Assembly: GCA_016201015.1 (NCBI GenBank)
Contig: JACQDQ010000115.1
Location: forward strand, 1 to 54,540
Origin: Pseudomonadota bacterium
Lineage (GTDB): Bacteria; Pseudomonadota; Alphaproteobacteria; CACIAM-22H2
Length of the DNA stretch: 54,540 bases
Direction of reading: 5' to 3'
The translations under genes were made by a program, and so were the position numbers. The first letter of the stretch is position 1; each line of letters starts with the position of its first letter. Positions 8,863 to 32,049 of the stretch are shown here, piece by piece. The notes beneath the pieces were generated by a model. It ran no database searches. It had not been told where the DNA came from and saw nothing but the letters and a program-made list of their open reading frames with translations.

Positions 8863-9855
8863 TCAAACCGGACCGGCGCGCGCCCGTCGCGGCGGCAATG
8901 CCGCAGGCTGTGCGTCATCGAGACGGAGATCGACCGCCTCGCGATTTGGCGCCATGAAGGCGGGGTCGGTCGCAGCGACGGCGACGGCCAGATCGGCGAT
9001 CACCTTGCACGTTCCGGCCGGCGGGCGCGTCGAGCGGACGACCACGAAGTGGTTGGCCGGTAGCGGCCGGACGGTCGAGATGACCCGCAGTTGGCCAGTG
9101 CCGATTTCACTGCCGAGAAGCCCCGGCGGCAGCACGCTGACGCCAAGGCCGGCGGCGGTCATCCGGATCATCGTCGCCAGGCTCGTGCAGCCATGCAGAC
9201 GTGCCGGACGGGTGTCCTCCGCAGCGAACCAGCGCTGCACCATGCGATGCTGGTGCGAGCCGCGCGAATGCGTGAATACCGGCCAGCTTGCCAGTTGGCG
9301 GGCGGTCAGCGGCTCCTCCGGCAGATCGAGGGCGGCGCTGCACATCCACGCGTTACGTACGGCCCCCAGCGGCTGGGTCTCGAAATCGGGCTCGGTCAAC
9401 GCGCCGACGAGGAAGGCGATATCGATTTCCCCGCCGCGCAGCTTCTCTTGGAGATTCAAACTGAGATCGACGACGAGCTCGACGTCAATCCCGGGATGCC
9501 GGCGGCTTATCTCGGAGACGAGGCGCGGCAGCCAGGTGAGCGCCACCGTGTCGGCGGCGCCGACGCGAACCACGCCGCTCATCGCCTGATAGACGCCGAG
9601 GCGATCGCGCAACTCGTCCCCGAGCGAGATGAAGCGCTCCGCATACTCGAGGAAATCGCGGCCCCGTGCAGTCAAGATGGAGGCCCGGCCCGAACGATCG
9701 AAAAGCTGAACCTGGAGCAGCTCTTCGAGGTCGCGGATGCGTCCCGACACGGCCGGCTGCGTCGTCGCCAGCCGCGCCGCCGCCGCGGAGAAGCTCCCCA
9801 GCCGCGTGATCCAATAGAACGTCTCAATCTGACGGAAGGTAATGCCTGGAATCAT
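8863..9855 (-). CDS. LysR-family transcriptional regulator (module 1)
   Basis: N-terminal HTH (FRQIETFYWITRLGSFSAAAARLATTQPAVSGRIRDLEE) plus a LysR substrate-binding domain. Divergent from the TRAP/hyu operon that starts at 10002. Confidence 0.9.
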   Translation of the reverse strand: MIPGITFRQIETFYWITRLGSFSAAAARLATTQPAVSGRIRDLEELLQVQLFDRSGRASILTARGRDFLEYAERFISLGDELRDRLGVYQAMSGVVRVGAADTVALTWLPRLVSEISRRHPGIDVELVVDLSLNLQEKLRGGEIDIAFLVGALTEPDFETQPLGAVRNAWMCSAALDLPEEPLTARQLASWPVFTHSRGSHQHRMVQRWFAAEDTRPARLHGCTSLATMIRMTAAGLGVSVLPPGLLGSEIGTGQLRVISTVRPLPANHFVVVRSTRPPAGTCKVIADLAVAVAATDPAFMAPNREAVDLRLDDAQPAALPPRRARAGPV

Positions 9856-9883
9856 AATCTAGACATTATGGAAACACATCATG

Positions 9884-9906
9884 AAACATCATTAGACATG
9901 ATGTTT
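9884..9906. promoter_or_regulatory. Candidate LysR operator: perfect 9-bp inverted repeat AAACATCAT-TAGAC-ATGATGTTT
   Basis: Lies in the AT-rich 146-bp divergent intergenic region. A near-repeat AACACATCAT sits just upstream, and there is a second TAGACAT copy at 9860-9866. Confidence 0.4.
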
Positions 9907-10001
9907 GAGGGGTATGTAAACTTCTTTCCTGCGGGTCGTTTGCGGCCTGGATCGAAGCCGGCGTCACCGGCAGGCGCAGGACTTGGCGGAGGAGGAAACG
10001 C

Positions 10002-10997
10002 ATGATGACGATACTGAAACAGGCGCTTCTGGCGGCCGCTCTTGTCGCAATCGCGGTCCCGGCGCAGGCGCAAAAGGTTCTGCGGCTGAATGAATCGCTG
10101 GGGCCCGGCAGCCCCGAGGAGCTGGCGCTCAACCACTTCAGGAAACTCGTCGAAGATGGCTCCCAGGGCCAGGTCAAGATCGCCATCCACCTGCAGGATG
10201 CGCTGGGCAAGCCGGACAGCGCGCTCGAAAGCCTGATGACGGGCGGCCTCGACCTCTATTCCGGCGCACTCGAATACTACGCCCAGATCGTCGGGCCGGA
10301 GATCAACGTCATCTCGCTGCCCTATCTCGTAAAAAACCAGGAGCATCTTCGCGCTTACCTCAAGAGCCCGGCCTTCCAAGGGGCGGAGAAGAAGCTGCTC
10401 GATCGCGGCATCCGCATCCTGTCGACCGAATGGAACGCCGACCGGGGACCCTATCGGGTGCTCGTCAGCGCCAAGCCGGTGCTCGGCCCGGACGACCTCA
10501 AGGGGCTGAAGGTCCGCATGTTTCCGAACGAGGTCTACATCCGCGCCTGGAAGCAGCTGGAGACCGTTCCCATTCAGCTCGCCTGGACCGAAACTTATCT
10601 CGGCATCCGGCAGGGCGTCGTGAACTCGGTCACCGCGCCGCTCAGCCTCGTGCGCTCGATGAAGTTCACCGAAGTCGCGCCATATCTGATCGAGATCCGC
10701 GAGTATCCCCAGACCTGGCCGATGACCATCAGCGAACGGACGTGGAAAAAATTAAGCGCCGAGGAGCAGAAGCTGCTCGTCGCCGCGGCCAACGCGGCGG
10801 GCAAGGTGTATGCCCAGACGACGATGGACCGGGCGCAATCCGACGTCGAGGCGATGATCCGCCAGAACAACGCCGTGGTCGTCCGCCTCAACACCGACTT
10901 GCTGCGCAGGAAGATGGAACCGCTTTATGCGCAGCTCGTGCAGGAAGGCATCATTTCGAAGCCGCTCTTCGACGCGGTCAACGCGCTGGCCAACTGA
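10002..10997 (+). CDS. dctP: TRAP transporter substrate-binding protein (DctP family), module 1
   Basis: Signal peptide (AAALVAIAVPAQA-QK). DctP-type fold features. Followed by the small and large TRAP permease genes. GGAGGAGG RBS upstream. Confidence 0.9.
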   Translation: MMTILKQALLAAALVAIAVPAQAQKVLRLNESLGPGSPEELALNHFRKLVEDGSQGQVKIAIHLQDALGKPDSALESLMTGGLDLYSGALEYYAQIVGPEINVISLPYLVKNQEHLRAYLKSPAFQGAEKKLLDRGIRILSTEWNADRGPYRVLVSAKPVLGPDDLKGLKVRMFPNEVYIRAWKQLETVPIQLAWTETYLGIRQGVVNSVTAPLSLVRSMKFTEVAPYLIEIREYPQTWPMTISERTWKKLSAEEQKLLVAAANAAGKVYAQTTMDRAQSDVEAMIRQNNAVVVRLNTDLLRRKMEPLYAQLVQEGIISKPLFDAVNALAN

Positions 10998-11082
10998 AGC
11001 CGGAGCCGCGGGCGCCGTCACTGGCGCCCGCATCTGTCGAGACTTTCCGGCGAGTCGGATCGCCGGCGAATATTAGAGAGTC

Positions 11083-11616
11083 ATGAGCCGTCAAAGCCCA
11101 GGCTATACGGCGCTCGTTGCCATCACCGAGGGCGCCAACCGGGTCTGCATTGTCGTCACGACGGCGGCATTGGCGCTGATCCTGTGTATCAACGGGATGG
11201 AAATCGTCGGCCGCACGGCGTTTTCGGTGTCCTATGCCTGGGGCTTCGAAACGAATCTCCTGCTCGGCGCGTGGCTCTATTTCATCGGCATCTACCAAGT
11301 CTATCACCGCAACGCAGACATCACCGTCGAGTTTTTCATCGATCGGCTGCCGGCGCGGTGGCGAGCCGCCGTGGCAACGGCGCTCAACATCGTGACTTGT
11401 GCAACGCTCGCGGTGCTTGTCTGGTTCGGTTGGCAACTGATCGAGCTCCAGCTGCCGTTCCGCACACCCGGGTCGCGGATACCCACGGCGCTGTTCACCA
11501 CCCCGCTCGTCATCAGTGCCGTGCTGATGATCGCCGTCGTCGCCCGCCGGACGTGGGAATTGTGGCTCGATGACGGCGAGACGACCGGCGGCCCTGTCGT
11601 GGGGCCGTGGCCATGA
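11083..11616 (+). CDS. dctQ: TRAP transporter small permease (DctQ family), module 1
   Basis: 177 aa, four hydrophobic spans, located between the DctP and DctM genes. Overlaps the dctM start by 10 nt. Confidence 0.85.
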   Translation: MSRQSPGYTALVAITEGANRVCIVVTTAALALILCINGMEIVGRTAFSVSYAWGFETNLLLGAWLYFIGIYQVYHRNADITVEFFIDRLPARWRAAVATALNIVTCATLAVLVWFGWQLIELQLPFRTPGSRIPTALFTTPLVISAVLMIAVVARRTWELWLDDGETTGGPVVGPWP

Positions 11617-12914
11617 TCTCGGTGCTGCTGATCGGCCTGTTCTTCGTCTTCATGATGGCCGGCCTGCCGGTGGCGATCTCGATCATGCTGGCGACGATCG
11701 TCGCCATGGTGACCGGCGGCTACGACCTGATGTCGCTGCCGCAGCACATGGCGTCCAGCATCAAGAGCATCGAGCTGATGGCGATCCCGTTTTTCATCCT
11801 GGCGGCGGCGCTGATGAATGTCTTCGGGATGACGCGCCGCATCTTCGATTTCGCCGACGCCGCGGTCGGCTGGCTGCGCGGCGGGCTGGCGCAGGCGAAC
11901 GTCCTGGCCGGATTCATCTTCGCCGGCATCTCGGGTGCGGCGGTCGCCGATGCCGCGGCGCTTGGCGCCATCTCGATGAGGGAGATGCCGCGCGCCGGCT
12001 ATCCCGCGCCGTTCTCCGCCGCGGTGGTCATCTCCGTGTCGACGCTCGGTCCGATCATCCCGCCGAGCATCATGATGGTCGTGTACGCGATCACCGCCGA
12101 CGTCTCGATTGCCCGCCTGTTCATCGCCGGGTTCGGGCCGGGCATCCTGATGGCAATGGCGCTGATGATCCTCATTTGGGTCCTGACCGCGACCGGTGTC
12201 GTGCCGTCGCCGGGAACGACACGATTCTCCTGGCGCCGGCTAGGGCAGGCGACGCGCACGTCGATCCTTTCGCTATTCGCGCCGGTCGTCATCCTTCGCG
12301 GCATGGTGGTCGGCTGGGTGACGCCGACCGAGGCCGGCGTTCTGGCCTGCGTCTACGCGATCCTCATCGGCATTCTGCAGCGCGAGGTCACGCCGCGGCG
12401 GCTGTTCGAGGCGTTCCGCGAAACCGTCGAGGGCAGCGCCCTCATCCTATACATCATCGCCGTCTCGTCGGCCCTGTCTTACGTCTTCGTTGCCGAGGGG
12501 ACGGCGGCGCAGCTTTCCGAGCTGATGGCGTCGCTCAGCATCGGGCCGGTCAGCTTCCTCCTGCTCGCCAATCTTCTGCTGCTGATCCTCGGCTGCCTGA
12601 TCGAAACCCTGCCGGCAATGCTGCTGTCCGTGCCGCTCCTGCTGCCGACGGCGAAGGCGCTCGGCGTCGATCTCGTGCATTTCGGCGTCGTCGTGATCCT
12701 CAACCTCATCATCGGGATCATGACGCCGCCCATGGGTATCGGGCTCTACATCCTCATGGCGGTGTCGAAGGTGAAGTTCGGCGAGCTCGTGCGGGCGTGC
12801 CTGCCGTTCATTTTCGTTCTTCTCGTCGCACTGCTGGTCATCACGTTCGTGCCGCAGATCACGCTGTGGCTTCCCAACCTTCTCTTTCCGGACCCGGGAG
12901 CGCTCGCGAAATAG
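11607..12914 (+). CDS. dctM: TRAP transporter large permease (DctM family), module 1
   Basis: 435 aa polytopic membrane protein. Typical DctM sequence (AIPFFILAAALMN, GISGAAVADAAALG, TPPMGIGLY). Confidence 0.92.
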   Translation: MAMISVLLIGLFFVFMMAGLPVAISIMLATIVAMVTGGYDLMSLPQHMASSIKSIELMAIPFFILAAALMNVFGMTRRIFDFADAAVGWLRGGLAQANVLAGFIFAGISGAAVADAAALGAISMREMPRAGYPAPFSAAVVISVSTLGPIIPPSIMMVVYAITADVSIARLFIAGFGPGILMAMALMILIWVLTATGVVPSPGTTRFSWRRLGQATRTSILSLFAPVVILRGMVVGWVTPTEAGVLACVYAILIGILQREVTPRRLFEAFRETVEGSALILYIIAVSSALSYVFVAEGTAAQLSELMASLSIGPVSFLLLANLLLLILGCLIETLPAMLLSVPLLLPTAKALGVDLVHFGVVVILNLIIGIMTPPMGIGLYILMAVSKVKFGELVRACLPFIFVLLVALLVITFVPQITLWLPNLLFPDPGALAK

Positions 12915-12926
12915 CGGGATAGAGGA

Positions 12927-15011
12927 ATGCCATTGTCGCTCAAGATCGCCGCCGATATCGGCGGAACCTTCACCGATATCGTCATGCTCCTGGCCGACGG
13001 AACCGTCGCCATGCGCAAGGTTCCGTCGACGCCCGATGACTATGGGCGCGGCGTGGTCGAAGGCATTCAGGCCCTGGTCGCCGACCTCAAGCTGCCGGCG
13101 AGCGAGATCAGCGAAGTCCTGCACGGCTGCACCGTGGCGACGAACGCGATCCTCGAGAAGAAGGGCGCCCGCACGGCGCTGCTGACGACGCGTGGCTTCC
13201 GCGACGTGCTGGAATTCCGGCGCATTCGCGTGCCGCGGCTATACGATCCGCTCTATCGCAAGCCGGAGCCGTTGGCGCCGCGCAATCTGCGCCTCGAGAT
13301 CACCGAGCGCGTGGCCGCCGACGGCAGCATCGTGACGCCGCTCGACGAGGCCGATGTGCGGCGCGCCATCGAAACCCTGCGCCGCGAGAAGGTCGAGGCG
13401 GTCGCGGTCTGTTTCCTGCACTCCTACGCCAATCCGGCCCATGAGCGCCTTGTCGCCGAGATGCTGCGGCGCGAGCTGCCGAATGTCTTCGTCACCCTGT
13501 CGGTCGACGTCCTGCCGGAGATCCGGGAGTACGAGCGGACGAGCACGGCCGTTATCAACGCCTATGTCGGTCCGCCGGTCGCCACCTATATCCGCAATCT
13601 CGAGACCAGCCTCAAGCGGGCCGGCATCGGCGCCCCGCTGCTGGTCATGCAGTCGAGCGGCGGAATCCTCGATGCCGCTACCGTGACAAGCACGCCGGCG
13701 CGCATCATCGAATGCGGCCCGGCGGCCGGCGTCATCGGCGCCGCATACCAGGCGGCCGTCGCCGGGTACGCGAATGTCATCGCCTTCGACATGGGCGGCA
13801 CGACGGCGAAGGCGTCATTGATCGAGCAGGGGCGGATCAGTCGCACCGACGAATACGAGGTCGGCGGCGGCATCTCGCTGAGCAGCCGTCTGGTGAAGGG
13901 CGGCGGCTACGCGCTCAAGCTGCCGGTCATCGACATCTCGGAGGTAGGGGCTGGCGGCGGCAGCATCGTCTGGTTCGACAAGGGCGGCGCGCTCAAGGTC
14001 GGCCCGGAAAGCGCCGGCGCCGTGCCCGGGCCGGCCTGCTACGACATGGGCGGTACGGCGGCGACGGTAACCGACGCCAACGTCGTGCTCGGCTTCCTCA
14101 ATCCCGAGGCGCTCGCCGGCGGTACGGTGCCGATCAAGGCGCAGCTCAGCCGTGACGTCATCGCGCGGAACGTGGCCGAGCCGCTCGGCGTATCGCTTCA
14201 CGACGCCGCCTGGTGGGTGCACGTCGTCGCCGACTCCAACATGATGCGCGCCGTGAAGGCGGTCTCGACCTATCGCGGCCGCGATCCGTCGGATTTCGTC
14301 CTGATGGCTTTCGGCGGCAATGGCGGCATTTTCGCCGTCGAGTTGGCGCGCCAGCTGCAGATCAAGCGGGTCGTCGTGCCGCCGGCGGCCGGCGTGTTCA
14401 GCGCCGTCGGCCTCTGCGTTGCCGAAATGCAGTTCAGTCAGTCGCACGCTTTCCTCCATCGCCTGTCGCTTCTGGCGCCGGAAACGATCAATGCGGCGCT
14501 CGACGGGCTGGCTGCGGCGGTGCTTGCCAAGCTGCAATGGTCGGGCAAGCCGGCGCGGACGCATCGCACCGCGGCCATGCGTTATGTCGGGCAGGCGTTC
14601 GAGCTGCCGGTCGATCTGCCCGACCGGCCGATCACCGCGGCGGATCTGCGGTCGTTAGCCGCCGCCTTCGAGCAGGAGCATATGCGTACCTACGGCCACC
14701 GGTCGGCGGACGGATCGGACGTGGAGATCGTGGCGATCGAGATCGTCGCCGCCGTTGTCGAGCCCGATGCGGCACGGCCGCAGCCGCACGCGGCCGTGCC
14801 GCCCGCGCTGCCGCTGCCGGGCACACGGCTCGCCCATTTCGGGCCGGCCGGATCGCACAGGACACCGGTGCTGCGGCGCGCGCATCTCAGCGAGCGCCCG
14901 ACGCCGGGCCCGCTCATCATCGAAGAGTATGAGGGAACCGCGGTCGTGCCACCCGGCGCCAGCGCATGGCTGGATCACGCGTCCGACATCATCATCGATG
15001 TCGGCCCATGA
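12927..15011 (+). CDS. hyuA: Hydantoinase A / oxoprolinase-family ATP-dependent amidohydrolase, A subunit (module 1)
   Basis: 694 aa. ASKHA-fold motifs DIGGTFTD and FDMGGTTAK, plus SEVGAGGGSI. Stop overlaps the next start (ATGA). Confidence 0.92.
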   Translation: MPLSLKIAADIGGTFTDIVMLLADGTVAMRKVPSTPDDYGRGVVEGIQALVADLKLPASEISEVLHGCTVATNAILEKKGARTALLTTRGFRDVLEFRRIRVPRLYDPLYRKPEPLAPRNLRLEITERVAADGSIVTPLDEADVRRAIETLRREKVEAVAVCFLHSYANPAHERLVAEMLRRELPNVFVTLSVDVLPEIREYERTSTAVINAYVGPPVATYIRNLETSLKRAGIGAPLLVMQSSGGILDAATVTSTPARIIECGPAAGVIGAAYQAAVAGYANVIAFDMGGTTAKASLIEQGRISRTDEYEVGGGISLSSRLVKGGGYALKLPVIDISEVGAGGGSIVWFDKGGALKVGPESAGAVPGPACYDMGGTAATVTDANVVLGFLNPEALAGGTVPIKAQLSRDVIARNVAEPLGVSLHDAAWWVHVVADSNMMRAVKAVSTYRGRDPSDFVLMAFGGNGGIFAVELARQLQIKRVVVPPAAGVFSAVGLCVAEMQFSQSHAFLHRLSLLAPETINAALDGLAAAVLAKLQWSGKPARTHRTAAMRYVGQAFELPVDLPDRPITAADLRSLAAAFEQEHMRTYGHRSADGSDVEIVAIEIVAAVVEPDAARPQPHAAVPPALPLPGTRLAHFGPAGSHRTPVLRRAHLSERPTPGPLIIEEYEGTAVVPPGASAWLDHASDIIIDVGP

Positions 15012-16789
15012 CCACTCACCATCATCATCGCCCGGTGGCCGCCATGACGCGCAACATCAGCCCGTTTCTGTTGGAGGTCGTGAAGAACGCCCTCGACACG
15101 ATCGCCGACGAGCTCGCCATCATCATCATGCGCACGGCCTACTCGAGCATCGTCCGCGACGCCATGGACTATTCGACGGCGATCTGCGACGCGCAGGGCA
15201 GAACCCTGGCGCAGGGCCTGACGACCCCGCTCCATCTCGGCAGCTTCTTCGATGCGATGCAGAACCTGATCGCGGTCCATGGCGATCGGGTGCGCCCGGG
15301 CGACATCTTCATCTTCAACGACCCCTATCTCGCCGCCGGGCAGCATCTGCCGGACATCTACATCGTCAGCCCGATCTTCATCGGCGATACGCTCGAAGGA
15401 TGGGCGACGACGGTCGCCCACCACAACGACGTGGGCGGCATCGTGCCGGGCAGCAACTCGATTGGCTCGACCGAAATCTTCCAGGAGGGGCTGCGGCTTC
15501 CGCTGCTCAAGCTCTACGATGGTGGCGTCGAGAACGGCGCGATCTGGGACATCGTCGCGGCGAATGTCCGCGTCCCCGACAAGGTCGTTGGCGACATCAA
15601 GGCGCAAATTGCCGCCTGCCGCGTCGGCGAGCGCGAGTTTCGCGCGCTGTTCGGCCGCTACGGCGCGGCGACGCTGCGGGACTGCTTCGAGGAGATTCAT
15701 GACTACGCCGAGCGTCTGGCGCGCGCCGAGTTCCGCGACATTCCCGATGGCACGTACCGCTTCACCAATCATATCGACGGCATCGGCGAAAACCCCGAGC
15801 CGATCGTCTTCAACGTCGCATTGACGGTGAAAGGAGACGACATCGTCATCGACTGGACCGGGACCTCGCGGCAGATCAAGGCCGGCATCAACTCCCCGGT
15901 CCCGTTCACCAAGGCTGCGGCCTATGCCGCGCTGCGCGCGGTGGTCCCGAGCGAGGTGCCGAACGCGCAAGGCTTCACGCGGCCGATCACCATCATCGCC
16001 CCCGAGGGCAGCATCGTGAATCCGACGGCGCCGGCGGCGTGCGGCGCCCGCGGCATCACCGGCTTCCGCATGATCGATTGCCTCATGGGGGCGTTGGCGC
16101 AGGCCATGCCGGCGCGGATCGCCGCCGACGGCAATGGCGGGGCGACGATCCCGTCGATCGGCGGGTTCCACGAGCGGCGGCCTTTCGTCTTCGTCGAGAC
16201 GATGATGGGCACCTGGGGTGGAACGGCGACGCATGACGGCCAGGAAGGCGTCGCACATATCGGCGCGAACCAGTCGAACATCCCGATCGAGACGATCGAG
16301 GCCGAATATCCGCTGCGCGTCGAGCAGTATGCCCTGATCCCCGATAGCGGAGGGGCCGGAAGATTCCGCGGCGGCCTTGGCATCGTGCGCGATTTCCGCC
16401 TGCTTGCCGACGAGGCGGTGATCACGATCCGGTCGGACAAGCGGCGCTTCCCGCCATACGGATTGTTCGGCGGCAAGGCCGGCACATCGTCGTGGAATAT
16501 CCTCAATCCGGAGGGGCCGGGTCGACGCATCCTGCCGGTACTGCTGACGCAGCCGGTGACGTTGCGCAAAGGCGACGTCTACCGCCACGTCCTGGCCGGC
16601 GGCGGCGGCTACGGACCGTCGCTCGAGCGGGATCCCGAGCTCGTCCGGCGCGACGTCATCCTGGGAAAGGTCAGCGTCGCCCACGCGCGCGACGCTTACG
16701 GCGTGGCGATCGTCGAGACCACGTCCGGCTTCGTCGTCGACGCCGCCGCCACCGCGGCGCTGCGCGCGCAAATGGCCACGGCGGCATGA
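15008..16789 (+). CDS. hyuB: Hydantoinase B / oxoprolinase-family, B subunit (module 1)
   Basis: Hydantoinase_B-type sequence (FNDPYLAAGQHLPDIY, DSGGAGRFRGGLG, GGGGYGP). The ATG at 15008 overlaps the hyuA stop (ATGA). Alignment with the module-2 paralogue favours the alternative start at 15044 (MTRNISPFLLEVVKN). Confidence 0.88.
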   Translation: MTTHHHHRPVAAMTRNISPFLLEVVKNALDTIADELAIIIMRTAYSSIVRDAMDYSTAICDAQGRTLAQGLTTPLHLGSFFDAMQNLIAVHGDRVRPGDIFIFNDPYLAAGQHLPDIYIVSPIFIGDTLEGWATTVAHHNDVGGIVPGSNSIGSTEIFQEGLRLPLLKLYDGGVENGAIWDIVAANVRVPDKVVGDIKAQIAACRVGEREFRALFGRYGAATLRDCFEEIHDYAERLARAEFRDIPDGTYRFTNHIDGIGENPEPIVFNVALTVKGDDIVIDWTGTSRQIKAGINSPVPFTKAAAYAALRAVVPSEVPNAQGFTRPITIIAPEGSIVNPTAPAACGARGITGFRMIDCLMGALAQAMPARIAADGNGGATIPSIGGFHERRPFVFVETMMGTWGGTATHDGQEGVAHIGANQSNIPIETIEAEYPLRVEQYALIPDSGGAGRFRGGLGIVRDFRLLADEAVITIRSDKRRFPPYGLFGGKAGTSSWNILNPEGPGRRILPVLLTQPVTLRKGDVYRHVLAGGGGYGPSLERDPELVRRDVILGKVSVAHARDAYGVAIVETTSGFVVDAAATAALRAQMATAA

Positions 16790-18372
16790 GCATCGACCTT
16801 CTGATCAAGGGTGGCGGGATCGTCGACGGCACCGGCCGCCCGGCCCTGCGGGCGGACGTGGCAATCGCCAGCGGCCGGATCGCGGCGATCGGGTCGATCG
16901 ACGCGCCGGAAGGCGTCGAAGTCATCGATGCCGCCGGACTGTGCGTCAGCCCCGGCTTCATCGATATCCACAGCCACTCCGACTACACGCTGCTGGTCGA
17001 TCCGCGCGCCATCAGTTCGATCACGCAGGGCGTGACGCTGGAAGTCGTCGGCAATTGCGGCCACGGCTGCGCGCCGATTCTCGATCGGGCGCTGGCGCCG
17101 ATGGCGATCTACGGGCCGGTCTCGCGCTTCGGTCTCGCCAGCGACGGGATGGGCGCCTACCTGGAGCGGCTCGACAAGGCGCGGCCGGCCGTCAACGTCG
17201 TCGCCCTGGTGCCGCACGGGCAGCTTCGTCTGGGCACCGTGGGCACCGCCCAGCGGCCGGGAACGCCCGACGAACTCGGCCAGATGAAGGCCGCCCTGGC
17301 CAAAGCCTTGGACGAGGGTGCCCACGGGTTCTCGACCGGCCTCGAATACGCGCAGGAAGTGTCCGCCACCGAGGCGGAGGTGGCCGAACTATGCACGGTG
17401 ACCGCTGCCGCCGGCGGCCTCTACGCCACGCATACGCGCAACCGCGACGAAGGCGCGGTTGCGGCGGTGGCCGAGGCGATCCGCACGGCGGAACGATCCA
17501 ACATCAAGTTGCAGGTCTCGCACATCTCGCCGCGCAGCGGCATCGCCGTCACCGAGGCCTGTCTCGACCTGGTAGACGCGGCACGGCGGCGCGGCCTGCC
17601 CGTCGGCTTCGACATGCATACGCGCCTGTTCGGCTTCACCCATCTCAAGAACATTCTGCCGGCTTGGGCGCTGGCGGGTTCCCCGCAGGACGTCGTCGCG
17701 CGTCTCGACGACGCCCGGCAACGGGAAAAGATGAGGACCCATCGCAGCCTGATCACGGCGCTCGGCGACTGGGAGCGCGTCAGCCTGGTGAGCAGTCGCC
17801 AGAACAAGGACATCGAAGGCGTCCCGTTTGCCGAGATCGGCCGCCGCCGGGGCATGCCTCCGCTCGACTGCGCCTACGACATTCTGAAGGCGGAGGCCGA
17901 CGATCTGTTCGTGCCGATGGTCGTGATGCAGTCCTACAGCGAGGAACAGCTGCGGCTGACATACCAGGCGCCCGACTGCCTGATCGGCTCCGACGCGACC
18001 GCACTGGCTCCCGACGGCCCCTTGGCGGGCGAAGTCTTTTATGGCGCCTATACCTGGGCCTCATGGTTCTATCGACGGATGGTCCGCGAGACCCGAACCT
18101 TCGCGCCGGAGGAAGCGATCCATCGCTTGACGCAGTTGCCGGCCACCGTGCTCGGCCTCTCGGATCGGGGGATGATCGCCGTGGGCGCCCAGGCCGACAT
18201 TGTCGCATTCGATTCCGCGCGTTTCGGCGAGCAGGGTACACTTGCCGAACCTAACCGGATCGCTCAGGGCATGCGGCACGTCGTCGTCAATGGCGTCGTT
18301 ACTCTGCGCGACGGGCGGCTCACCGGGGCGCGCGGCGGTCAAGTCCTGCGACGCGCGCACGCCGGAGGTTAA
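16786..18372 (+). CDS. D-aminoacylase-family metal amidohydrolase (N-acyl-D-amino-acid deacylase-like), module 1
   Basis: Track ORF trimmed to Met99 (MSIDLLIKGGGIVDGTG). FIDIHSHSD (HxH) and GNCG (metal Cys) as in D-aminoacylases, plus THTRN and SHISPR. ATGA overlap with hyuB. Confidence 0.87.
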   Translation: MSIDLLIKGGGIVDGTGRPALRADVAIASGRIAAIGSIDAPEGVEVIDAAGLCVSPGFIDIHSHSDYTLLVDPRAISSITQGVTLEVVGNCGHGCAPILDRALAPMAIYGPVSRFGLASDGMGAYLERLDKARPAVNVVALVPHGQLRLGTVGTAQRPGTPDELGQMKAALAKALDEGAHGFSTGLEYAQEVSATEAEVAELCTVTAAAGGLYATHTRNRDEGAVAAVAEAIRTAERSNIKLQVSHISPRSGIAVTEACLDLVDAARRRGLPVGFDMHTRLFGFTHLKNILPAWALAGSPQDVVARLDDARQREKMRTHRSLITALGDWERVSLVSSRQNKDIEGVPFAEIGRRRGMPPLDCAYDILKAEADDLFVPMVVMQSYSEEQLRLTYQAPDCLIGSDATALAPDGPLAGEVFYGAYTWASWFYRRMVRETRTFAPEEAIHRLTQLPATVLGLSDRGMIAVGAQADIVAFDSARFGEQGTLAEPNRIAQGMRHVVVNGVVTLRDGRLTGARGGQVLRRAHAGG

Positions 18373-19304: not shown

Positions 19305-19323
19305 GATTATTAATCCCTATCAT
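19303..19323. promoter_or_regulatory. Candidate LysR box ATGAT-N11-ATCAT (T-N11-A type) overlapping the lysR-2 start
   Basis: 5-bp inverted arms spaced by 11 nt in the AT-rich divergent region. It shares the (A)TCATGA core with the module-1 site. Confidence 0.35.
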
Positions 19324-19422
19324 GATCCTTCAGGAACTTTGATTAGAATTTATCGTTCTTCCGGCTTAACCTGAACTGGAAAAATCGGCCCGCGCGGGCG
19401 ATCAAACGATATAGGGGCGGCG

Positions 19423-21519: not shown

Positions 21520-21524
21520 CGATC

Positions 21525-23297
21525 ATGGAGCGCGCGGTCGACCCCATCACCTTCGAAGTCATCAAGAACGGCCTGTCGTCCGTTGCCGACGAGATGGCGC
21601 TGATCATCATGCGCAGCGCCTATTCGCCGGTGGTCCGCGACTCGATGGACTATTCGACCGCGCTTTGCGATCGCCACGGCCAAATCATCGCCCAGGGCCT
21701 GACCCTGGCGGTGCAGCTCGGCGCTTTCCCCGATGGCATGCACTACATCATGCGCGACGAAGCCGCGAACGCGCGGCCTGGCGACATCTTCATCTTTAAC
21801 GATCCCTACGGTTCCGGCGGCCAGCATCTGCCTGACATCTACGTCATCAAGCCGATCTTCCATGAAGGGCGGATCGAAGGCTATGCCTGCACCATGGCGC
21901 ATCACAGCGATGTCGGCGGCATTGCGCCCGGCAGCACCGCGATCCATGCGACCGACATCCATCAGGAGGGGCTGTGCATCCCCCTGCTGAAGCTGTACGA
22001 CGCCGGCCAACCGAACCGGTCGCTGTTTCGCATCATCGAGAAGAATACCCGACAACCGATTCAGGTCCTCGGCGACCTGAAGGCACAGCTCGCCGCCTGC
22101 GCGACCGGCGAGCGGGGTTATCTGGACCTGTTGCGCCGCCACGGCGCCGAGGCGATGCGACCGTACCTCGAGGAACTGCAGGACCAGGCCGAGCGGATGA
22201 TGCGCGATTTCATCCGCCAGATCCCCGACGGCGCCTATGAGTTTGTCGACTACATCGACGGCGTCGGCGACGATCCCCAGACTCTCCGCATCCAGGTGAA
22301 AGTGACCGTTGCCGGCGACGAAATCGCCATCGACCTGGCGGGCACGTCGCGGCAGGTGGCGGCGGCGATCAACTGTCCGATCGCCATGATCCATTCGGCG
22401 GCCTATTGCGCCATCCGCTGCATCACCAGCCCTGCCATTCCGAATTGCGAGGGGTATATCCGGCCGATCCGCGTGATCGCGCCCGAGGGCACGATCGTCA
22501 ACCCGCTGCCGCCCGCCGCCTGCGCCGCGCGCGGCGTCATGGGCTATCGCGTCTTCGATGCGATCATGGGGGCGCTCGCGCAGGTCGTGCCGAACCGCGT
22601 GATCGCGGCCGGCGAAGGCGGGCCGACGCTGTTCTCGATCGGCGGCACGCAAAACGGCCGCCAGTTCGTGCTGACCGAAGTGATGGTCGGAACCTGGGGC
22701 GCGCGGGCCGGCAAGGACGGCGTCGAGGGCATTTCGAATCCGGCGGCGAATCTGTCCAATCAGCCGGTCGAACTCATCGAGGCGGAACTCCCGCTCGAGG
22801 TCGTCGGTTACGGCCTGGTTGCGGACTCGGGCGGCGCCGGAAAATTCCGCGGCGGCCTCGCGTTTCACCGCGAATTCCGCGTGCTCTGCGACGATGCGAC
22901 GTGCACGACGCGCGCCGACCGGCGCGATCATCGGCCCTACGGCCTGGCGGGCGGCGAGCCCGGCGGCGGATCGCAGAACATCATCAACCCCGGCGCCCAG
23001 CAGACGGGATTGCCGACCATGCCGATGCGGGCCATTCCGCTGCGGCACGGCGATGTCTTCCGCCACATTTCGGCGGGCGGCGGCGGCTATGGCGATCCGC
23101 TCGAGCGCCCGCCGGAGGCGGTGCTGGAGGACGTGCGCGATGAAAAAGTAAGCCTCGCGGCGGCACGCGAGCGCTACGGCGTGGTCATCGACCCGAAGCG
23201 GCTGACCGTCGATCGCGAGGCGACGGCGCAGCGCCGGCAGACCATGCGCAAAGCGGCCAAGCCCGCGCCAGCGCAAGCCTTGCAGGCGGCCAAATGA
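21525..23297 (+). CDS. hyuB: Hydantoinase B / oxoprolinase-family B subunit (module 2)
   Basis: Track ORF trimmed to Met20 (MERAVDPITFEVIKNG). Motifs FNDPYGSGGQHLPDIY, DSGGAGKFRGGLA, GGGGYGDP. Confidence 0.9.
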   Translation: MERAVDPITFEVIKNGLSSVADEMALIIMRSAYSPVVRDSMDYSTALCDRHGQIIAQGLTLAVQLGAFPDGMHYIMRDEAANARPGDIFIFNDPYGSGGQHLPDIYVIKPIFHEGRIEGYACTMAHHSDVGGIAPGSTAIHATDIHQEGLCIPLLKLYDAGQPNRSLFRIIEKNTRQPIQVLGDLKAQLAACATGERGYLDLLRRHGAEAMRPYLEELQDQAERMMRDFIRQIPDGAYEFVDYIDGVGDDPQTLRIQVKVTVAGDEIAIDLAGTSRQVAAAINCPIAMIHSAAYCAIRCITSPAIPNCEGYIRPIRVIAPEGTIVNPLPPAACAARGVMGYRVFDAIMGALAQVVPNRVIAAGEGGPTLFSIGGTQNGRQFVLTEVMVGTWGARAGKDGVEGISNPAANLSNQPVELIEAELPLEVVGYGLVADSGGAGKFRGGLAFHREFRVLCDDATCTTRADRRDHRPYGLAGGEPGGGSQNIINPGAQQTGLPTMPMRAIPLRHGDVFRHISAGGGGYGDPLERPPEAVLEDVRDEKVSLAAARERYGVVIDPKRLTVDREATAQRRQTMRKAAKPAPAQALQAAK

Positions 23298-24883
23298 GCT
23301 TCGACGTCGTCATCCGCAACGGCACGTTGATCGACGGAACCGGCGCGCGACCGATCCGCGCCGATCTCGCGATTGTGGGCGAGCGTATTGCCGCCATCGG
23401 CGAGATTGGCGAGCGCGGGCTTGCCGAGCTCGACGCCGACGGCAAGTATGTCGCCCCCGGCTTCATCGACATCCATAGCCATTCGGACTACACGCTGCTG
23501 GTCGATCCGCGGGCGGTGAGCGCCATTCGGCAGGGCGTGACGCTCGAGGTGATCGGCAATTGCGGCTTCGGCTGCGCGCCCATTCGCGATCCGGCGCTGG
23601 CCAAGAGCAGCATCTACGGCTTCGACGGGTCCATCCCGCTCGCCTGGCGCTCGATGGGCGAATACCTCGAGCGTCTCGACGCCGCGGCGCCGGCGGTCAA
23701 CGTGATCACGCTGGTGCCCAATGCCCAGCTCCGCCTTTCGACGGTGGGCATGCGCGATCGCCCGGCCGACCGGGACGATCTGGCGCGCATGAAAGACCTG
23801 CTGAGCGAAGGACTCGGCGAGGGCGCGTTCGGCTATTCGACCGGGCTTGAATACGGGGCGGAGCGCGGCGCCAGCGAGGCGGAACTATCGGAGCTCTGTC
23901 GGGTGGTGCGCCGCGCCGACGGTCTTTACGCCACGCACACGCGCGACCGCGATCACCATGCCATCGACGCGATCGACGAGGCGATCCGCACCGCGGAAGC
24001 GAGCGATGTCCGCCTGCAGATCTCGCATCTGCTGCCGCGGATGATCGGCGATGGCGTCGCCGAGCGGGCGGTCGAAGCGGTCGAGCGGGCGGCCAGCCGT
24101 GGCCTGGACATCGCCTTTGACATGCACACGCGCCTGTTCGGCACGACCTACCTGAATACGATACTGCCGAACTGGGCACATGAGGACGGGCGGGAGGCGC
24201 TGGCCGCCCATCTCCGCTCGCCGGACAGTCGGGCGCGCATGCGAGACTACCGCAGCATCGTCGCCGGCGGCGGATGGGAGCGCGTGGTGCTGCTGGACAA
24301 CCCCGCATTTCCGGAATTCTCGCGGCGGAGTCTCGGCGAGATCGGCCGTTCGCTCGGGCGCGATCCGCACGACGTGGCGTTCGATATCCTACTGACCGAG
24401 ATCGATCAGCTTCATCGGCCGATGGTCATCATCCTCTGCTATACGGAAGACGATCAGGCGCAGATCTTTCGTCACCCGAAATGCATGCCGGGTTCCGATG
24501 CGACCACCATGGCCCCCGACGGCCCGCTGGCGCGCGCGGTCTTCCACGGCGCCTACTCGTGGGCGGCCTGGTTTTACAGCTTCATGGTGCGTCGCCGGCG
24601 GGTGCTCTCGCCCGCGGAGGCGATCCATCGTCTGACCGGGCTTCCGGCGCGGACGCTGCGGCTCGACGATCGCGGCGTGCTGCGCCGCGGCGCCCATGCC
24701 GACGTCGCGGTGTTCGACCCCGAGCAATTCGGCGAGCGCAGCACCACGTTCGAGCCGAATCAACTGGCGCAAGGCATGCACCACGTCGTCGTCAATGGCG
24801 TCGTCACCCTGCACGCCGGCGAACCGACCGGACGACGCGCCGGCCGCGTCATTCGCCGCGCCGGACCGCGGATGGCGATCTGA
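23294..24883 (+). CDS. D-aminoacylase-family metal amidohydrolase, module 2
   Basis: MSFDVVIRNGTLIDGTG. Motifs FIDIHSHSD, GNCG, THTRD, SHLLPR. ATGA overlap with hyuB-2. Confidence 0.87.
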   Translation: MSFDVVIRNGTLIDGTGARPIRADLAIVGERIAAIGEIGERGLAELDADGKYVAPGFIDIHSHSDYTLLVDPRAVSAIRQGVTLEVIGNCGFGCAPIRDPALAKSSIYGFDGSIPLAWRSMGEYLERLDAAAPAVNVITLVPNAQLRLSTVGMRDRPADRDDLARMKDLLSEGLGEGAFGYSTGLEYGAERGASEAELSELCRVVRRADGLYATHTRDRDHHAIDAIDEAIRTAEASDVRLQISHLLPRMIGDGVAERAVEAVERAASRGLDIAFDMHTRLFGTTYLNTILPNWAHEDGREALAAHLRSPDSRARMRDYRSIVAGGGWERVVLLDNPAFPEFSRRSLGEIGRSLGRDPHDVAFDILLTEIDQLHRPMVIILCYTEDDQAQIFRHPKCMPGSDATTMAPDGPLARAVFHGAYSWAAWFYSFMVRRRRVLSPAEAIHRLTGLPARTLRLDDRGVLRRGAHADVAVFDPEQFGERSTTFEPNQLAQGMHHVVVNGVVTLHAGEPTGRRAGRVIRRAGPRMAI

Positions 24884-24999: not shown

Positions 25000-26001
25000 A
25001 TGAATACCACCATGCGTCACATGCTGGCGGGCGGCGCCGTTGCCGTCGCGCTTGCACTCGGCGGCTCGGCATCGGCCCAGACGATCGTGATGAAGCTGGG
25101 GACGGTCGACGCCGAGAAGAGCCACTCGGGCGTCGGGTCGGAGGCATTCGCGCGCGAGGTCGAGCAACTGAGCAAGGGGACGATGAAGGTCGAGGTGTTT
25201 CACGCCGGCAAGCTCGGCGGCATCCCGGCGCAGATCGCCAACGTGTTCAGCGGATCGCAGGACATGCATCTGCTGTACCCGGAATTTCTGAGTAACTTTG
25301 CGCCGGAAGCGAAGTTGATCTCGCTGCCGTACCTGTTCGACAACCTCGAGCACCTCCAGCGCTTCTATAAGAGCGAATTGTGGAAGCCGGCGATCGACAA
25401 GCTGGACAGCCAAGGCGCGGTGCTCCTCGACAAGGACTGGACCTGGATGATCCGCGACCCGCGCGGCCTCATCTCGGTCAAGCCGGTGTTCGCGCCCGAC
25501 GACATGAAGGGCTTCAAGCTGCGCATTTGGGAGGACAAGTCGGCGATCGAAACCTGGCGCGGCTTCGGCGCGATCACGACCGTTGTGCCGCGGCCGGAAA
25601 TGTATCTGGCATTCAAGCAGGGGATCATCCAAGGCGGACCCGAGACGATCGGCATCGCCTACGACCAGAAGAACGTCGAAGTCGCCAAGTACTGGACCCG
25701 CACCGAGGAGTACTACCAGATCATCAATGTGATGATAAACAAGCGGAAATACGAGTCGCTGACGCCGGATCAGCGGATGATCCTGGCGACGGCGGCGAAG
25801 AATGCCGCCAAGGTGTTCGTCCAGGAGACCCTCAACGGCTACGCCGACAAGAAGGAGAAGGCGCGCACGGAATTCGGCGTGACCGCCATCGAACCGCCAT
25901 TGGCGCCGTGGCGCGAGAAGGGCGCCGCGACGGTTGCGCGGCTCCTCGCCGAGAACTACGTGCCGGCGACGCTCATCGAGAAGGTGCGGGCGCTCAAATA
26001 G
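25000..26001 (+). CDS. dctP: TRAP transporter substrate-binding protein (DctP family), module 2
   Basis: Track ORF 24274..26001 trimmed to Met243 (MNTTMRHMLAGGAVAVALALGGSASA-QT signal peptide). GGGAGG RBS 8 nt upstream. Confidence 0.88.
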   Translation: MNTTMRHMLAGGAVAVALALGGSASAQTIVMKLGTVDAEKSHSGVGSEAFAREVEQLSKGTMKVEVFHAGKLGGIPAQIANVFSGSQDMHLLYPEFLSNFAPEAKLISLPYLFDNLEHLQRFYKSELWKPAIDKLDSQGAVLLDKDWTWMIRDPRGLISVKPVFAPDDMKGFKLRIWEDKSAIETWRGFGAITTVVPRPEMYLAFKQGIIQGGPETIGIAYDQKNVEVAKYWTRTEEYYQIINVMINKRKYESLTPDQRMILATAAKNAAKVFVQETLNGYADKKEKARTEFGVTAIEPPLAPWREKGAATVARLLAENYVPATLIEKVRALK

Positions 26002-26064
26002 TCCGATCGAGCGGGCGGGGCCTTCCGCCCCGCCCGTGCTCCGCAGCATGGCAATGAGGGGGTA

Positions 26065-26607
26065 ATGGCCGACGCCTCGCCCGCGTGGGACCGAGTGGCG
26101 CAGGCCTATCTATCGGCGTCGCGGGTCGCGATTCTCGCCGCGGCGCTGGTCATGTTCGTCATCATGGTCGCCGCGAACGCCTTCAACATGACCGTGCGCA
26201 CGCTGTCCCTGGGCGATGTCCTCTGGCACCAGGAGATCTCGATCCTGGCGGCCATGTGGGTGTATTTCGCCGCCTACGCGCTGATCGGCAAGGAGGACGC
26301 GTATATTCGCGTCGAGTTTCTCGTCGACCTCCTGCCGCAGCGCATCAACCGGACAATCCAAATCCTGGTGCGCGTCGTCACCATCGTCTTCCAGGGCGCG
26401 GTGGTGGTGCTCACTTGGCGGGCGCTCAAGGTCGTCTCCGTGTTCCAGACGCATATCCTCGAGTGGCCGGAGTACTTCTTCTACATTCCTCTGCTCGTCG
26501 CAGGGGTCGACATCGCGCTCACCGAATGCATCCATCTCGCGCGGGCGCTGGCCGGCCGTTCGCGCGAGAGGCTCAGCCCGCGAAATCTCATCGGCACGGG
26601 ATCGTAG
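26065..26607 (+). CDS. dctQ: TRAP transporter small permease (DctQ family), module 2
   Basis: 180 aa, four hydrophobic spans, located between the DctP and DctM genes. Confidence 0.85.
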   Translation: MADASPAWDRVAQAYLSASRVAILAAALVMFVIMVAANAFNMTVRTLSLGDVLWHQEISILAAMWVYFAAYALIGKEDAYIRVEFLVDLLPQRINRTIQILVRVVTIVFQGAVVVLTWRALKVVSVFQTHILEWPEYFFYIPLLVAGVDIALTECIHLARALAGRSRERLSPRNLIGTGS

Positions 26608-26608
26608 C

Positions 26609-27892
26609 GTGTCGTCGCTGGCGATGATGGCCGTGTTCCTCGCCCTGCTGCTGCTGCGGGTGCCGGTTTGCGCGGCGATGGGATTTGGCGCGATGACCGG
26701 CTTGGGGCTGCTCGGTCTGCCGCTGAGCACGATGGCGCGCTACATGATCGAGGACGTCCGCGCGGTGCCGCTGCTCGCCATTCCCTTCTTCGTCCTCGCC
26801 GCCTCCGTCATGAACGAGATGGGGGTTACGCGGCGCATCTTCGAGTTCGCCAACAATCTGGTCGGCGGGATGCGCGGCGGCCTGGCGCAGGTGGCGATCG
26901 TCTCCAACGTCGTCTTCGCCGGCATCTCCGGCTCGGCGCTGGCGGACATCGCCGGTCTCGGCTCGATCATCATCAACGCGATGACGCGGCACGGCTATCG
27001 CATCGAGTTCGCGGCGGCGATCGTCGTCGCGGCGTCGGTGGTGGCGCCGATCATTCCGCCGTCAATCATGTTCATCATCTACGCGGTGATGATGAACGTC
27101 TCGATCGGCAAGCTGTTCGTCGCCGGCATCGTTCCCGGCCTGATGATCGGCGCCGTGCTGATGATCACGGTCTGGCTGTTCGCCGCGCTGCGGCTGCACC
27201 GCTTTCCCGATCCGACGCCCGGCACCCTGCGCGGTCTCATTCGCTCGGCGGCGAGCGGAGCGCCGGCCATTCTCTCGCCGGCGATCATCCTGGCCGGCAT
27301 GGTCGGCGGTATCGCGACGCCGACCGAGGCGGGCGTACTCGCCGTGCTGTATTCGCTGCTTCTCGGCGTTCTCTACCGCGAGCTTTCGTGGGCGCGCCTG
27401 TACCGGGCTCTCGAGTCGTCGACCAAGACGACGGCCATGATCATGTATCTGACCGGCATCGGCTCGGTCATGGCGTTCGTGATTACGTCCGAGCAGGCCG
27501 CGGAGCAGATCGCGCGCTATCTGCTTCAGCTGACGGATCAGACATGGATCCTCCTGCTGTTGATCAATTTGATCCTGTTGATCCTGGGATGCGTCCTGGA
27601 GACCGTCCCAGCCATGCTCATCTCCATCCCGATCCTTGGCCCGGTGGCAGTCAGGCTCGGCATGGATCCGTTACAATTCGGCGTCGTTCTGAGTCTCAAT
27701 CTGCTCATCGGCATCATGACTCCGCCGATCGGTCTCGGGCTGTTCGCCATCTGCGCAATGACCGGATTGAAGCTCGAGAAGGTGGTTTACGCCTGCCTCG
27801 CGTTCATTCCGACGCTTGTCATCGCCCTTCTCATACTCACCTACGTGCCGTCGCTGTCGACATGGCTCCCGGGTCTTCTCTTCCGGGACTAG
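26609..27892 (+). CDS. dctM: TRAP transporter large permease (DctM family), module 2
   Basis: 427 aa. GTG start 1 nt after the dctQ stop. Motifs AIPFFVLAASVMN, GISGSALADIAGLG, TPPIGLGLF. Confidence 0.92.
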   Translation: MSSLAMMAVFLALLLLRVPVCAAMGFGAMTGLGLLGLPLSTMARYMIEDVRAVPLLAIPFFVLAASVMNEMGVTRRIFEFANNLVGGMRGGLAQVAIVSNVVFAGISGSALADIAGLGSIIINAMTRHGYRIEFAAAIVVAASVVAPIIPPSIMFIIYAVMMNVSIGKLFVAGIVPGLMIGAVLMITVWLFAALRLHRFPDPTPGTLRGLIRSAASGAPAILSPAIILAGMVGGIATPTEAGVLAVLYSLLLGVLYRELSWARLYRALESSTKTTAMIMYLTGIGSVMAFVITSEQAAEQIARYLLQLTDQTWILLLLINLILLILGCVLETVPAMLISIPILGPVAVRLGMDPLQFGVVLSLNLLIGIMTPPIGLGLFAICAMTGLKLEKVVYACLAFIPTLVIALLILTYVPSLSTWLPGLLFRD

Positions 27893-32033: not shown

Positions 32034-32049
32034 GTTTCCCTCCCTTTTT

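Follow-up and report, generated by a model that had tools for sequence, protein, structure and literature searches.

HyuA/HyuB-type ATP-dependent enzymes open rings that ordinary hydrolases cannot, but few of their substrates have been identified. Analysis of a 54,540-nucleotide stretch of an alphaproteobacterial contig (JACQDQ010000115.1, assembly GCA_016201015.1; hereafter the window) showed two cassettes in which such a pair is accompanied by a second amidohydrolase. Each cassette holds a LysR-type regulator gene, the dctP, dctQ and dctM genes of a tripartite ATP-independent periplasmic (TRAP) transporter, hyuA, hyuB and a gene for an Amidohydro_3 protein, with the gene order permuted between module 1 and module 2 (Table 1). 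Every protein family involved is known already, and the overall logic is that of hydantoin and N-methylhydantoin utilisation, in which ring opening is followed by deacylation or decarbamoylation. What is new is that HyuAB is paired, in a conserved manner, with a D-acylase-like clade defined by a sequence signature, that this pairing reaches across many phyla, that there are two cassette lineages, and that the TRAP transporter is optional.

Creatinine degradation through N-methylhydantoin amidohydrolase and N-carbamoylsarcosine amidase follows the same logic of ATP-driven ring opening and then hydrolysis of a linear ureido compound, and its HyuA/HyuB-type enzyme is the best solved relative (7hk5). 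The second enzyme of that route is an isochorismatase-family amidase, whereas here it is a Cys-bridged Amidohydro_3 protein; the TRAP uptake here implies an anionic substrate, and the window contains no creatinine deaminase or sarcosine oxidase. The hyu cluster of Pseudomonas sp. NS671 has HyuA and HyuB, the HyuC carbamoylase and the HyuE racemase, and the pair is again followed by an enzyme that removes an N-substituent. The window, by contrast, lacks both a carbamoylase of the M20 or nitrilase type and a hydantoin racemase, and a racemase-family gene was seen only in one related locus (L086). Ectoine catabolism combines TRAP uptake with the ring hydrolase DoeA, the deacetylase DoeB, the aminotransferase DoeD and the aldehyde dehydrogenase DoeC. 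As an analogy, it is alike in the TRAP uptake of a cyclic zwitterionic or anionic solute, ring opening and N-acyl hydrolysis, but both hydrolytic enzyme families are entirely different; a class-III aminotransferase gene and an aldehyde dehydrogenase gene do adjoin lysR1 here, but these two show no conservation beside the cassette in other genomes.

The caprolactamase CapAB of Pseudomonas jessenii (PMC8453981) has in common with the window proteins its two subunits, the ATP motifs and an Asp-His-Asp-His tetrad, and gives the best NCBIfam match. It differs in that the window proteins stay far below its cut-off and are nearer to N-methylhydantoinase, that caprolactam is neutral, and that its pathway has no second amidohydrolase. 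The D-acylases (1m7j, 3gip, 9g5m) have the same Amidohydro_3 fold as the amidohydrolases of the window and the same metal ligands (His-x-His, a bridging Cys, two further His and an Asp); they keep a Tyr (YPY/PYP) and an Arg (HPR), whereas the clade described below gains DMHTR and Arg220 and has a longer inserted domain.

The HyuAB-linked amidohydrolase clade

One genome per GTDB species was scanned with the amidohydrolase alignment, which gave 80 loci; the 14 window proteins were searched against these loci by tblastn, and neighbour genes were called with a filter on third-codon-position GC content (GC3). HyuA and/or HyuB lay within 10 kb of the amidohydrolase in 35 of the 42 loci that had at least 50% identity and at least 4 kb of upstream sequence, against 2 of 22 loci at less than 45% identity (Fisher's exact test, p = 7.5e-9, a value that is indicative only because species are not phylogenetically independent). 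The carriers span about nine phyla and include Alphaproteobacteria and Burkholderiales among the Proteobacteria, Planctomycetia among the Planctomycetota, several Actinomycetota classes, Poribacteria, Latescibacterota, Gemmatimonadota, Chloroflexota and Bacillota, in all of which the clade is genetically locked to HyuAB. Of 34 loci, 15 had a 4-nt overlap of the hyuB stop with the amidohydrolase start, and 20 had a gap of -10 to +30 nt between the two. A conserved core of HyuA, HyuB and amidohydrolase, functionally tied and often translationally coupled, is thus supported, and the co-occurrence extends well beyond this genome. TRAP genes stood beside the trio in 7 of 49 close loci, all proteobacterial; in other close loci the transporter nearby was an SSF symporter or of the peptide-type ABC kind, or none was obvious. 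The transporter is an optional proteobacterial add-on outside the conserved unit. The close tie of HyuAB to the amidohydrolase proposed in the preliminary description is supported, but the TRAP genes of the module described there are not part of this unit.

A search of full-text literature, with most subscription-journal papers outside its reach, found no paper that assigns the trio to a pathway, in agreement with the earlier statement that no characterised pathway has this triad. One paper that holds the terms hydantoinase, D-aminoacylase and TRAP together (PMC13081902) was unrelated to the trio. A protein search of a plasmid collection with amidohydrolase 2 gave no relative above 37% identity.

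In the D-acylase subtype, a Cys-bridged binuclear centre is formed by His62, His64, Cys91, His216 and His246 (KleDacyl numbering), and a carboxylate site formed by Tyr279 (PYP/YPY motif) and Arg373 is kept in all studied D-acylases (PMC12149444, a 2025 review with a new structure). The best PDB matches of amidohydrolase 1 were N-acyl-D-glutamate deacylase 3gip and D-aminoacylase 1m7j (E 1e-56 to 1e-61), and amidohydrolase 2 matched 1m7j with E 4e-59. The metal ligands H62, H64, C91, H216, H246 and D403 are intact in amidohydrolase 1, align with those of 1m7j, are invariant in a 16-sequence alignment, and are kept in 45-46 of the 46 clade members.

The substrate site was compared between the 46 relatives with at least 50% identity, which form the HyuAB-linked clade, and 30 relatives below 45%. 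The distant group retains SHxK, DxYPY and HPR (Tyr, Arg and Lys in 27 of 30 each). In the clade, the carboxylate-site Tyr is replaced by His in 46/46, with the His, Thr and Arg of DMHTR also in 46/46 (YPY to HTR, from which the name HTR clade is taken), and the HPR arginine is replaced by Gly in 46/46 of the multiple alignment. A pairwise alignment to 1m7j agreed at the Tyr position; unlike the multiple alignment, it paired an Arg of amidohydrolase 2 with the 1m7j Arg. The clade has no Lys at the SHxK position, after the fourth ligand; it carries Arg220 in 44 of 46 members, where the distant group has Glu, and its inserted domain is about 40 residues longer than in D-acylases. The DMHTR signature is formed by residues 276-280 of amidohydrolase 1 and is also present in amidohydrolase 2.

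The clade is sharply defined, and it is predicted to keep the D-acylase catalytic machinery, with DMHTR in place of the carboxylate clamp and hence a different substrate-anchoring site. Because the carboxylate site is rebuilt in all 46 members, these proteins are probably not canonical deacylases of N-acyl-D-amino acids. The D-aminoacylase label given earlier holds at superfamily level, where the metal ligands are kept, but not at the level of the carboxylate site, and an N-acyl-D-amino acid as the intermediate, also proposed earlier, is left unsupported by the replaced Tyr and Arg. The automatic annotation as 'D-aminoacylase / N-acyl-D-amino-acid deacylase' needs correcting for this clade.

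HyuA1/2 scored 306-308 bits in Pfam against a cut-off of 22.9, and HyuB1/2 scored 570-575 bits against 26.8. The ATP motifs DxGGTxxD, D(M/V)GGT and GxxPGP and the B-subunit Asp-His-Asp-His tetrad were defined in the caprolactamase structure paper (PMC8453981). HyuA1 has DIGGTFTD, DMGGT and GAVPGP, HyuA2 has DIGGTFTD, DMGGT and GAMPGP, and the tetrad was found in both HyuB1 and HyuB2 with the spacing of CapB, by motif and, for HyuB2 (D42, H101, D104, H126), by alignment to CapB. The closest solved structure was N-methylhydantoinase (7hk5/9h03), with 7hk5 giving E 6e-132 for HyuA1, 4e-95 for HyuB1 and 2e-99 for HyuB2; caprolactamase came next (6yra, E 1e-108 for HyuA and 2e-69 for HyuB), and carboxylases were distant. 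The best NCBIfam models were those of caprolactamase CapA and CapB (NF050156, NF050157), yet the scores (HyuA1 512, HyuA2 541, HyuB1 304 and HyuB2 293 bits) were at most about half of the equivalog cut-off of 1000 bits. Acetophenone-carboxylase models gave 318 for ApcC and 119-145 for ApcD, each against a cut-off of 1500, and no extra gamma/epsilon small-subunit gene was found between or beside hyuA and hyuB in the open reading frame (ORF) listing. Since the NCBIfam scores are low and the PDB matches favour N-methylhydantoinase, caprolactamase was ruled out as an assignment and so was acetone/acetophenone carboxylase. HyuA and HyuB are thus predicted to be genuine ATP-dependent members of the hydantoinase/oxoprolinase family, somewhat nearer to the hydantoinase side. 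The CapB pocket residues mapped on HyuB2 indicated a more polar, N-methylhydantoinase-like pocket and singled out no substrate.

Pairwise BLASTP between the modules showed 52% identity for HyuA, 53% for HyuB and 55% for the amidohydrolase, against 41% for LysR, 43% for DctM, 29% for DctP and 25% for DctQ, with E-values from 0 to 6e-13, far beyond chance. A recount gave 68 of 124 aligned N-terminal HyuA positions identical, where 69 had been counted before, and the DctP patches ISLPYL and KPV..PDD.KG.K.R were found in both binding proteins. Related cassettes were sorted into types by their identity to the module 1 or module 2 paralogues. In type 1 loci (L001-3, L005, L013, L014), HyuB is 60-66% identical to HyuB1 and about 50% to HyuB2, and the order in L001 is dctPQM-hyuAB-amidohydrolase. 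In type 2 loci (L011, L016, L027, L030, L032, L034-36, L039, L040, L042, L044, L049, L052), identity is 64-78% between their HyuB and HyuB2 and 55-66% between their DctP and DctP2, and the order is always hyuAB-amidohydrolase-dctPQM. L049 comes from a Burkholderiaceae isolate, an example of a culturable carrier. Six-gene cassettes in both gene orders are thus also present in other genomes. The window therefore has, side by side, one representative each of two old, widespread orthologous cassette lineages. The great age of the duplication, suggested earlier, was supported. The description of the modules as permuted copies of one another was not borne out, and recent local duplication as their origin was ruled out, as each module groups with its own widespread lineage and gene order.

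A metagenomic look-up showed a full six-gene module-1-type cassette with a divergent LysR gene and flanking transposases. The contigs L001-L003 carry this cassette (3157-11569) with an identical protein in all three and in three different contexts, surrounded by IS1595, IS630, IS481, DDE_Tnp_1 and Transposase_mut genes, and in two of the three an IS1595 element separates lysR from dctP. The transposase genes around these copies in three contexts suggest horizontal movement of the module-1-type cassette.

Proposed pathway and alternatives

DctP, DctQ and DctM are encoded together in both modules, as in DctP-type TRAP systems. Two DctP arginines, Arg152 and Arg173 in 4P47 numbering, bind or salt-bridge the ligand carboxylate (PMC11668362). 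By motif position, these correspond to Arg152 and Arg172 in DctP1 and to Arg155 and Arg175 in DctP2, within R-x5-KPV and KG(L/F)K(V/L)R, and an anionic substrate is plausible because both proteins keep them. PDB relatives of the two proteins are distant (about 1e-30; best for DctP1 4nq8, E 3e-30), too far for ligand transfer. The low identity of DctP1 and DctP2 suggests two different substrates for the two modules.

The reading preferred here, which has about an even chance of being correct, is that the two operons are catabolic, independent of each other and each under LysR control, and that they serve two anionic cyclic amides, related but not the same; each operon would provide uptake, ring opening and a second hydrolysis. 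Hydantoins or cyclic ureides that bear a carboxylate, imides and lactams are the candidate substrates. The DctPQM transporter would take up the anionic cyclic amide or ureide, as suggested by the conserved carboxylate-binding arginines. HyuA would then activate the ring amide with ATP and HyuB would hydrolyse it at the metal site, which would open the ring; this step is suggested by the intact ATP and metal motifs and by homology to N-methylhydantoinase and caprolactamase. The coupled Cys-bridged metallo-amidohydrolase, placed third by synteny, would cut the remaining linear amide or ureido bond and yield an amino acid (or N-alkyl amino acid) with a small acid, or with CO2 and NH3. A gene of the Asp/Glu/hydantoin-racemase family in one related operon (L086) also speaks for this reading. 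We infer both the order of the two hydrolytic steps and the substrate identity.

Several observations weigh against this reading. The Asn of DctP that usually supports carboxylate binding (Asn213, 4P47 numbering) appears to be Ala in DctP1 (GVVNSVTAP) and Thr in DctP2 (GIIQGGPET), in a motif alignment made by eye. Since TRAP genes accompany so few of the related loci, the argument for an anionic substrate is limited to the proteobacterial cassettes; the earlier proposal that an anionic compound is imported is therefore plausible for the binding proteins, but does not extend to the conserved unit. Lacking the D-acylase carboxylate-site Tyr and Arg, the amidohydrolase may have a substrate that is not an N-substituted alpha-amino acid. 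In other genomes the trio is repeatedly joined by peptidases of the S15/CocE-NonD type (in 11 loci), DAO-type flavoproteins, subunits resembling sarcosine oxidase alpha/gamma, signature amidases, MR_MLE proteins of the enolase superfamily, PhyH dioxygenases and isochorismatase-family proteins, and these point to several chemistries. On two Bosea plasmids, close relatives of HyuAB are paired with an Alr- or DSD1-type pyridoxal phosphate (PLP) enzyme and not with the amidohydrolase, so that a different third enzyme serves a closely related ring-opening pair. Taken together, the neighbours point to amino-acid- or peptide-derived cyclic amides, possibly with D- or N-alkyl amino acid products, and single out no one compound.

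The reverse order of reactions is the first alternative, and it is unlikely. The amidohydrolase would act first on an N-acylated or peptidic compound with a lactam part, such as an N-pyroglutamyl amino acid (an anion with no free amine), and HyuAB would then open the released 5-oxoproline-like lactam with ATP. Bacteria usually use PxpABC for 5-oxoproline, which counts against such a route. Gene order and coupling are uninformative on reaction order, TRAP substrates are typically anionic, and the commonest extra partners are peptide-related (the S15 peptidases, an MR_MLE epimerase-type enzyme and a signature amidase), all of which would suit it. Characterised D-acylase-family enzymes remove N-acyl groups from amino acids (PMC12149444), but the amino-acid-carboxylate site of D-acylases is rebuilt in the HTR clade, and HyuB is nearer to N-methylhydantoinase than to other solved family members.

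A broader proposal is rather doubtful. It holds that the trio is a dedicated, ancient three-protein system of at least nine phyla, mostly uncultured lineages, which would degrade natural cyclic amides that have no known catabolic genes (e.g. diketopiperazines or carboxylated or N-substituted hydantoins), perhaps as a physical complex that passes the ring-opened product directly to the amidohydrolase.

An N-alkyl-hydantoin pathway of the creatinine/N-methylhydantoin type is improbable. The amidohydrolase would replace the isochorismatase-type N-carbamoylsarcosine amidase and the product would be an N-alkyl amino acid for a sarcosine-oxidase-type enzyme. This would fit the best solved HyuAB relative, the sarcosine-oxidase alpha/gamma-like and DAO genes that adjoin the trio in L017, L026, L032 and L047, and the isochorismatase genes that adjoin it in L001 and L004; many carriers also belong to lineages for which sponge-microbiome studies inferred creatinine use (PMC6742649). 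Set against this, such neighbours were seen in only 4-6 of 49 loci, the window itself encodes neither a sarcosine oxidase nor an isochorismatase, and alongside an isochorismatase the amidohydrolase would be superfluous. N-methylhydantoin and creatinine, moreover, have no carboxylate for a TRAP binding protein.

Diketopiperazine catabolism, in which HyuAB would open an Asp- or Glu-containing cyclic dipeptide and the amidohydrolase would act as a dipeptidase, is quite improbable. Ring opening followed by a second amide cleavage suits the two enzymes, and some D-acylase relatives reportedly hydrolyse L-Xaa-D-Xaa dipeptides. The related loci contribute S15 proteins of the X-Pro dipeptidyl-peptidase family, MR_MLE (dipeptide-epimerase-type), DAO and Asp/Glu racemase-family neighbours, but the case is purely contextual, most diketopiperazines are neutral and ill-suited to TRAP, and we know of no HyuA/HyuB family member acting on six-membered bis-lactams. 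HyuAB as an ATP-dependent carboxylase of the acetone/acetophenone type, with an unrelated amidohydrolase, is very improbable: the protein family is shared and the Apc subunit models match weakly, but the scores lie far under the cut-offs, the gamma/epsilon subunit gene is missing, PDB carboxylase matches are much weaker than those to hydrolases, and the tight conserved coupling to the amidohydrolase argues for amide chemistry.

For the preferred reading of two cyclic-amide operons, the two paralogous TRAP binding proteins in one genome are tractable entries to the substrate, as they should bind the two substrates directly. If that substrate proves to be a cyclic amide common in nature, this would close a gap in the carbon and nitrogen cycles and yield new biocatalysts. 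The trio is a solid genome-context and enzyme-discovery lead and not a new principle.

Gene layout, control regions and neighbouring genes

All 14 genes of the segment 8863-27892 were confirmed at or near the positions given in the preliminary description by the ORF listing, junction inspection and Pfam scans, and all 14 proteins matched the families named there far above gathering thresholds. The MFS gene after module 2 was likewise recovered.

Table 1. Positions of the cassette genes, control regions and adjoining genes in the window.
Feature	Position	Strand	Basis or remark
GntR/FCD regulator	3780-4529	-	
SSADH-like (succinate-semialdehyde dehydrogenase-like) aldehyde dehydrogenase	4574-6007	-	
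Arginase/agmatinase-family ureohydrolase	6091-7146	-	
Class-III omega-aminotransferase	7319-8704	-	Beside lysR1, downstream on its strand
lysR1	8863-9855	-	HTH_1 + LysR_substrate domains; divergent from module 1
Divergent control region, module 1	9856-10001	.	Direct sequence reading; AT-rich inverted repeats
dctP1, TRAP periplasmic solute-binding protein	10002-10997	+	PF03480 E 5.5e-53; signal-peptide-like N-terminus
GC-rich hairpin just 3' of dctP1	11007-11031	+	Perfect 9-bp stem; fold -28.8 kcal/mol, z = -2.8
dctQ1, small TRAP membrane subunit	11083-11616	+	PF04290 E 6.7e-23
dctM1, large TRAP membrane subunit	11607-12914 (alternative start ATG 11613)	+	PF06808 E 5.8e-108
hyuA1, ATP-binding subunit, hydantoinase/oxoprolinase family	12927-15011	+	Hydant_A_N, Hydantoinase_A, Hydant_A_C
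hyuB1, metal-site (hydrolytic) subunit	15008 or 15044-16789	+	Hydantoinase_B E 6e-171
Amidohydrolase 1, D-acylase-like, HTR clade	16786-18372	+	PF07969
lysR2	18408-19304	-	HTH_1 + LysR_substrate domains; divergent from module 2
Divergent control region, module 2	19305-19422	.	Direct sequence reading; repeated TCATGA motifs
hyuA2	19423-21519	+	Three Hydantoinase_A-type domains
hyuB2	21525-23297	+	Hydantoinase_B E 2e-172
Amidohydrolase 2, HTR clade	23294-24883	+	PF07969; DMHTR motif
dctP2, TRAP solute-binding protein	25000-26001	+	PF03480 E 1.7e-48
GC-rich hairpin just 3' of dctP2	26011-26037	+	11-bp stem; -27.5 kcal/mol, z = -2.6
dctQ2	26065-26607	+	PF04290 E 2.6e-13
dctM2	26609-27892	+	PF06808 E 3e-107
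DHA2-type MFS (efflux-like) gene, after module 2	27955-29433		

Both hyuB/amidohydrolase junctions show the ATGA stop/start overlap reported before (16786-16789 and 23294-23297), and the dctQ1 stop overlaps the alternative dctM1 start as ATGA. The similarly proposed ATGA coupling of hyuA1 and hyuB1 exists if ATG 15008 is used, but it is uncertain because BLASTP similarity between HyuB1 and HyuB2 begins only at ATG 15044, the likelier start by this comparison. Translation from ATG 15008 would begin MTTHHHHRPVAAM, with a natural run of four His that has no counterpart in HyuB2.

The two hairpins in the dctP-dctQ gaps have perfect GC-rich stems and no T-run, and for the latter reason they look like intra-operon stabiliser or attenuator elements, which would raise expression of the binding protein relative to the membrane subunits.

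Both lysR genes carry the domains of, and lie divergent from their putative target operons like, LysR-type divergent activators. A LysR gene is also divergently placed beside the related cassettes in L001, L011, L014, L032, L049 and L052, and lysR2 is 48-53% identical to those beside the type 2 cassettes of L011, L032, L049 and L052. The region 9856-10001 contains the inverted repeats CATAAT-N6-ATTATG and CATCATG-N13-CATGATG, together with two weak sigma-70-like matches, a count no higher than chance. In a genome of 66% GC, the two LysR/operon intergenic regions stand out as AT-rich islands, and they share ATCATGA/TCATGAT-type repeats. These repeats may be LysR boxes, perhaps related from one regulator to the other; LysR would be expected to bind at 9856-10001, and 19305-19422 would have a regulatory role.

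Pfam scans of the flanks 826-8866 and 27955-36335 showed no racemase or carbamoylase (M20/nitrilase type) within about 8 kb either side, which bears out the earlier remark that these partners of hydantoin utilisation are absent. The gene set at 3780-8704 looks like a guanidino-acid (guanidinobutyrate-type) catabolic operon. The aminotransferase, arginase-family and aldehyde dehydrogenase genes were rejected as module members and are treated as neighbours because they are not conserved next to the cassette elsewhere.

In other genomes, the richest context of the trio was a long same-strand run in an 8.08-Mb genome (L086, 1-19717), with hyuA, hyuB, GFO_IDH_MocA, three S15 peptidases, MR_MLE, DUF2330, the amidohydrolase, DAO, PhyH and a gene of the Asp/Glu/hydantoin-racemase family. 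A DNA search of the plasmid collection gave only partial HyuA matches, of about 72% nucleotide identity, in Bosea plasmids. In the two Bosea loci (L084, 11899-17064; L085, 11145-16113), the PLP enzyme is translationally coupled to HyuAB and a peptide-type ABC transporter precedes; L084 also has an M20 peptidase and an isochorismatase in the vicinity.

Further along the window, a minus-strand cluster at 42585-52807 encodes an Ldh_2 protein (AllD ureidoglycolate-dehydrogenase family), a gamma-glutamyltranspeptidase, AllG-/AllH-type oxamate carbamoyltransferase subunits, a carbamate-kinase-like AA_kinase and an FdrA/AllF-like CoA-ligase-fold protein. This cluster, some 15 kb away from module 2, resembles a set for the catabolism of oxalurate/oxamate (ureides). 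Between these, after the MFS gene, an unrelated sugar-type block (29480-36335) contains an amino-acid-type ABC permease, an SBP_bac_3 binding protein, a GH127 beta-L-arabinofuranosidase-family protein, a LacI regulator and an SMP-30/gluconolactonase-family protein.

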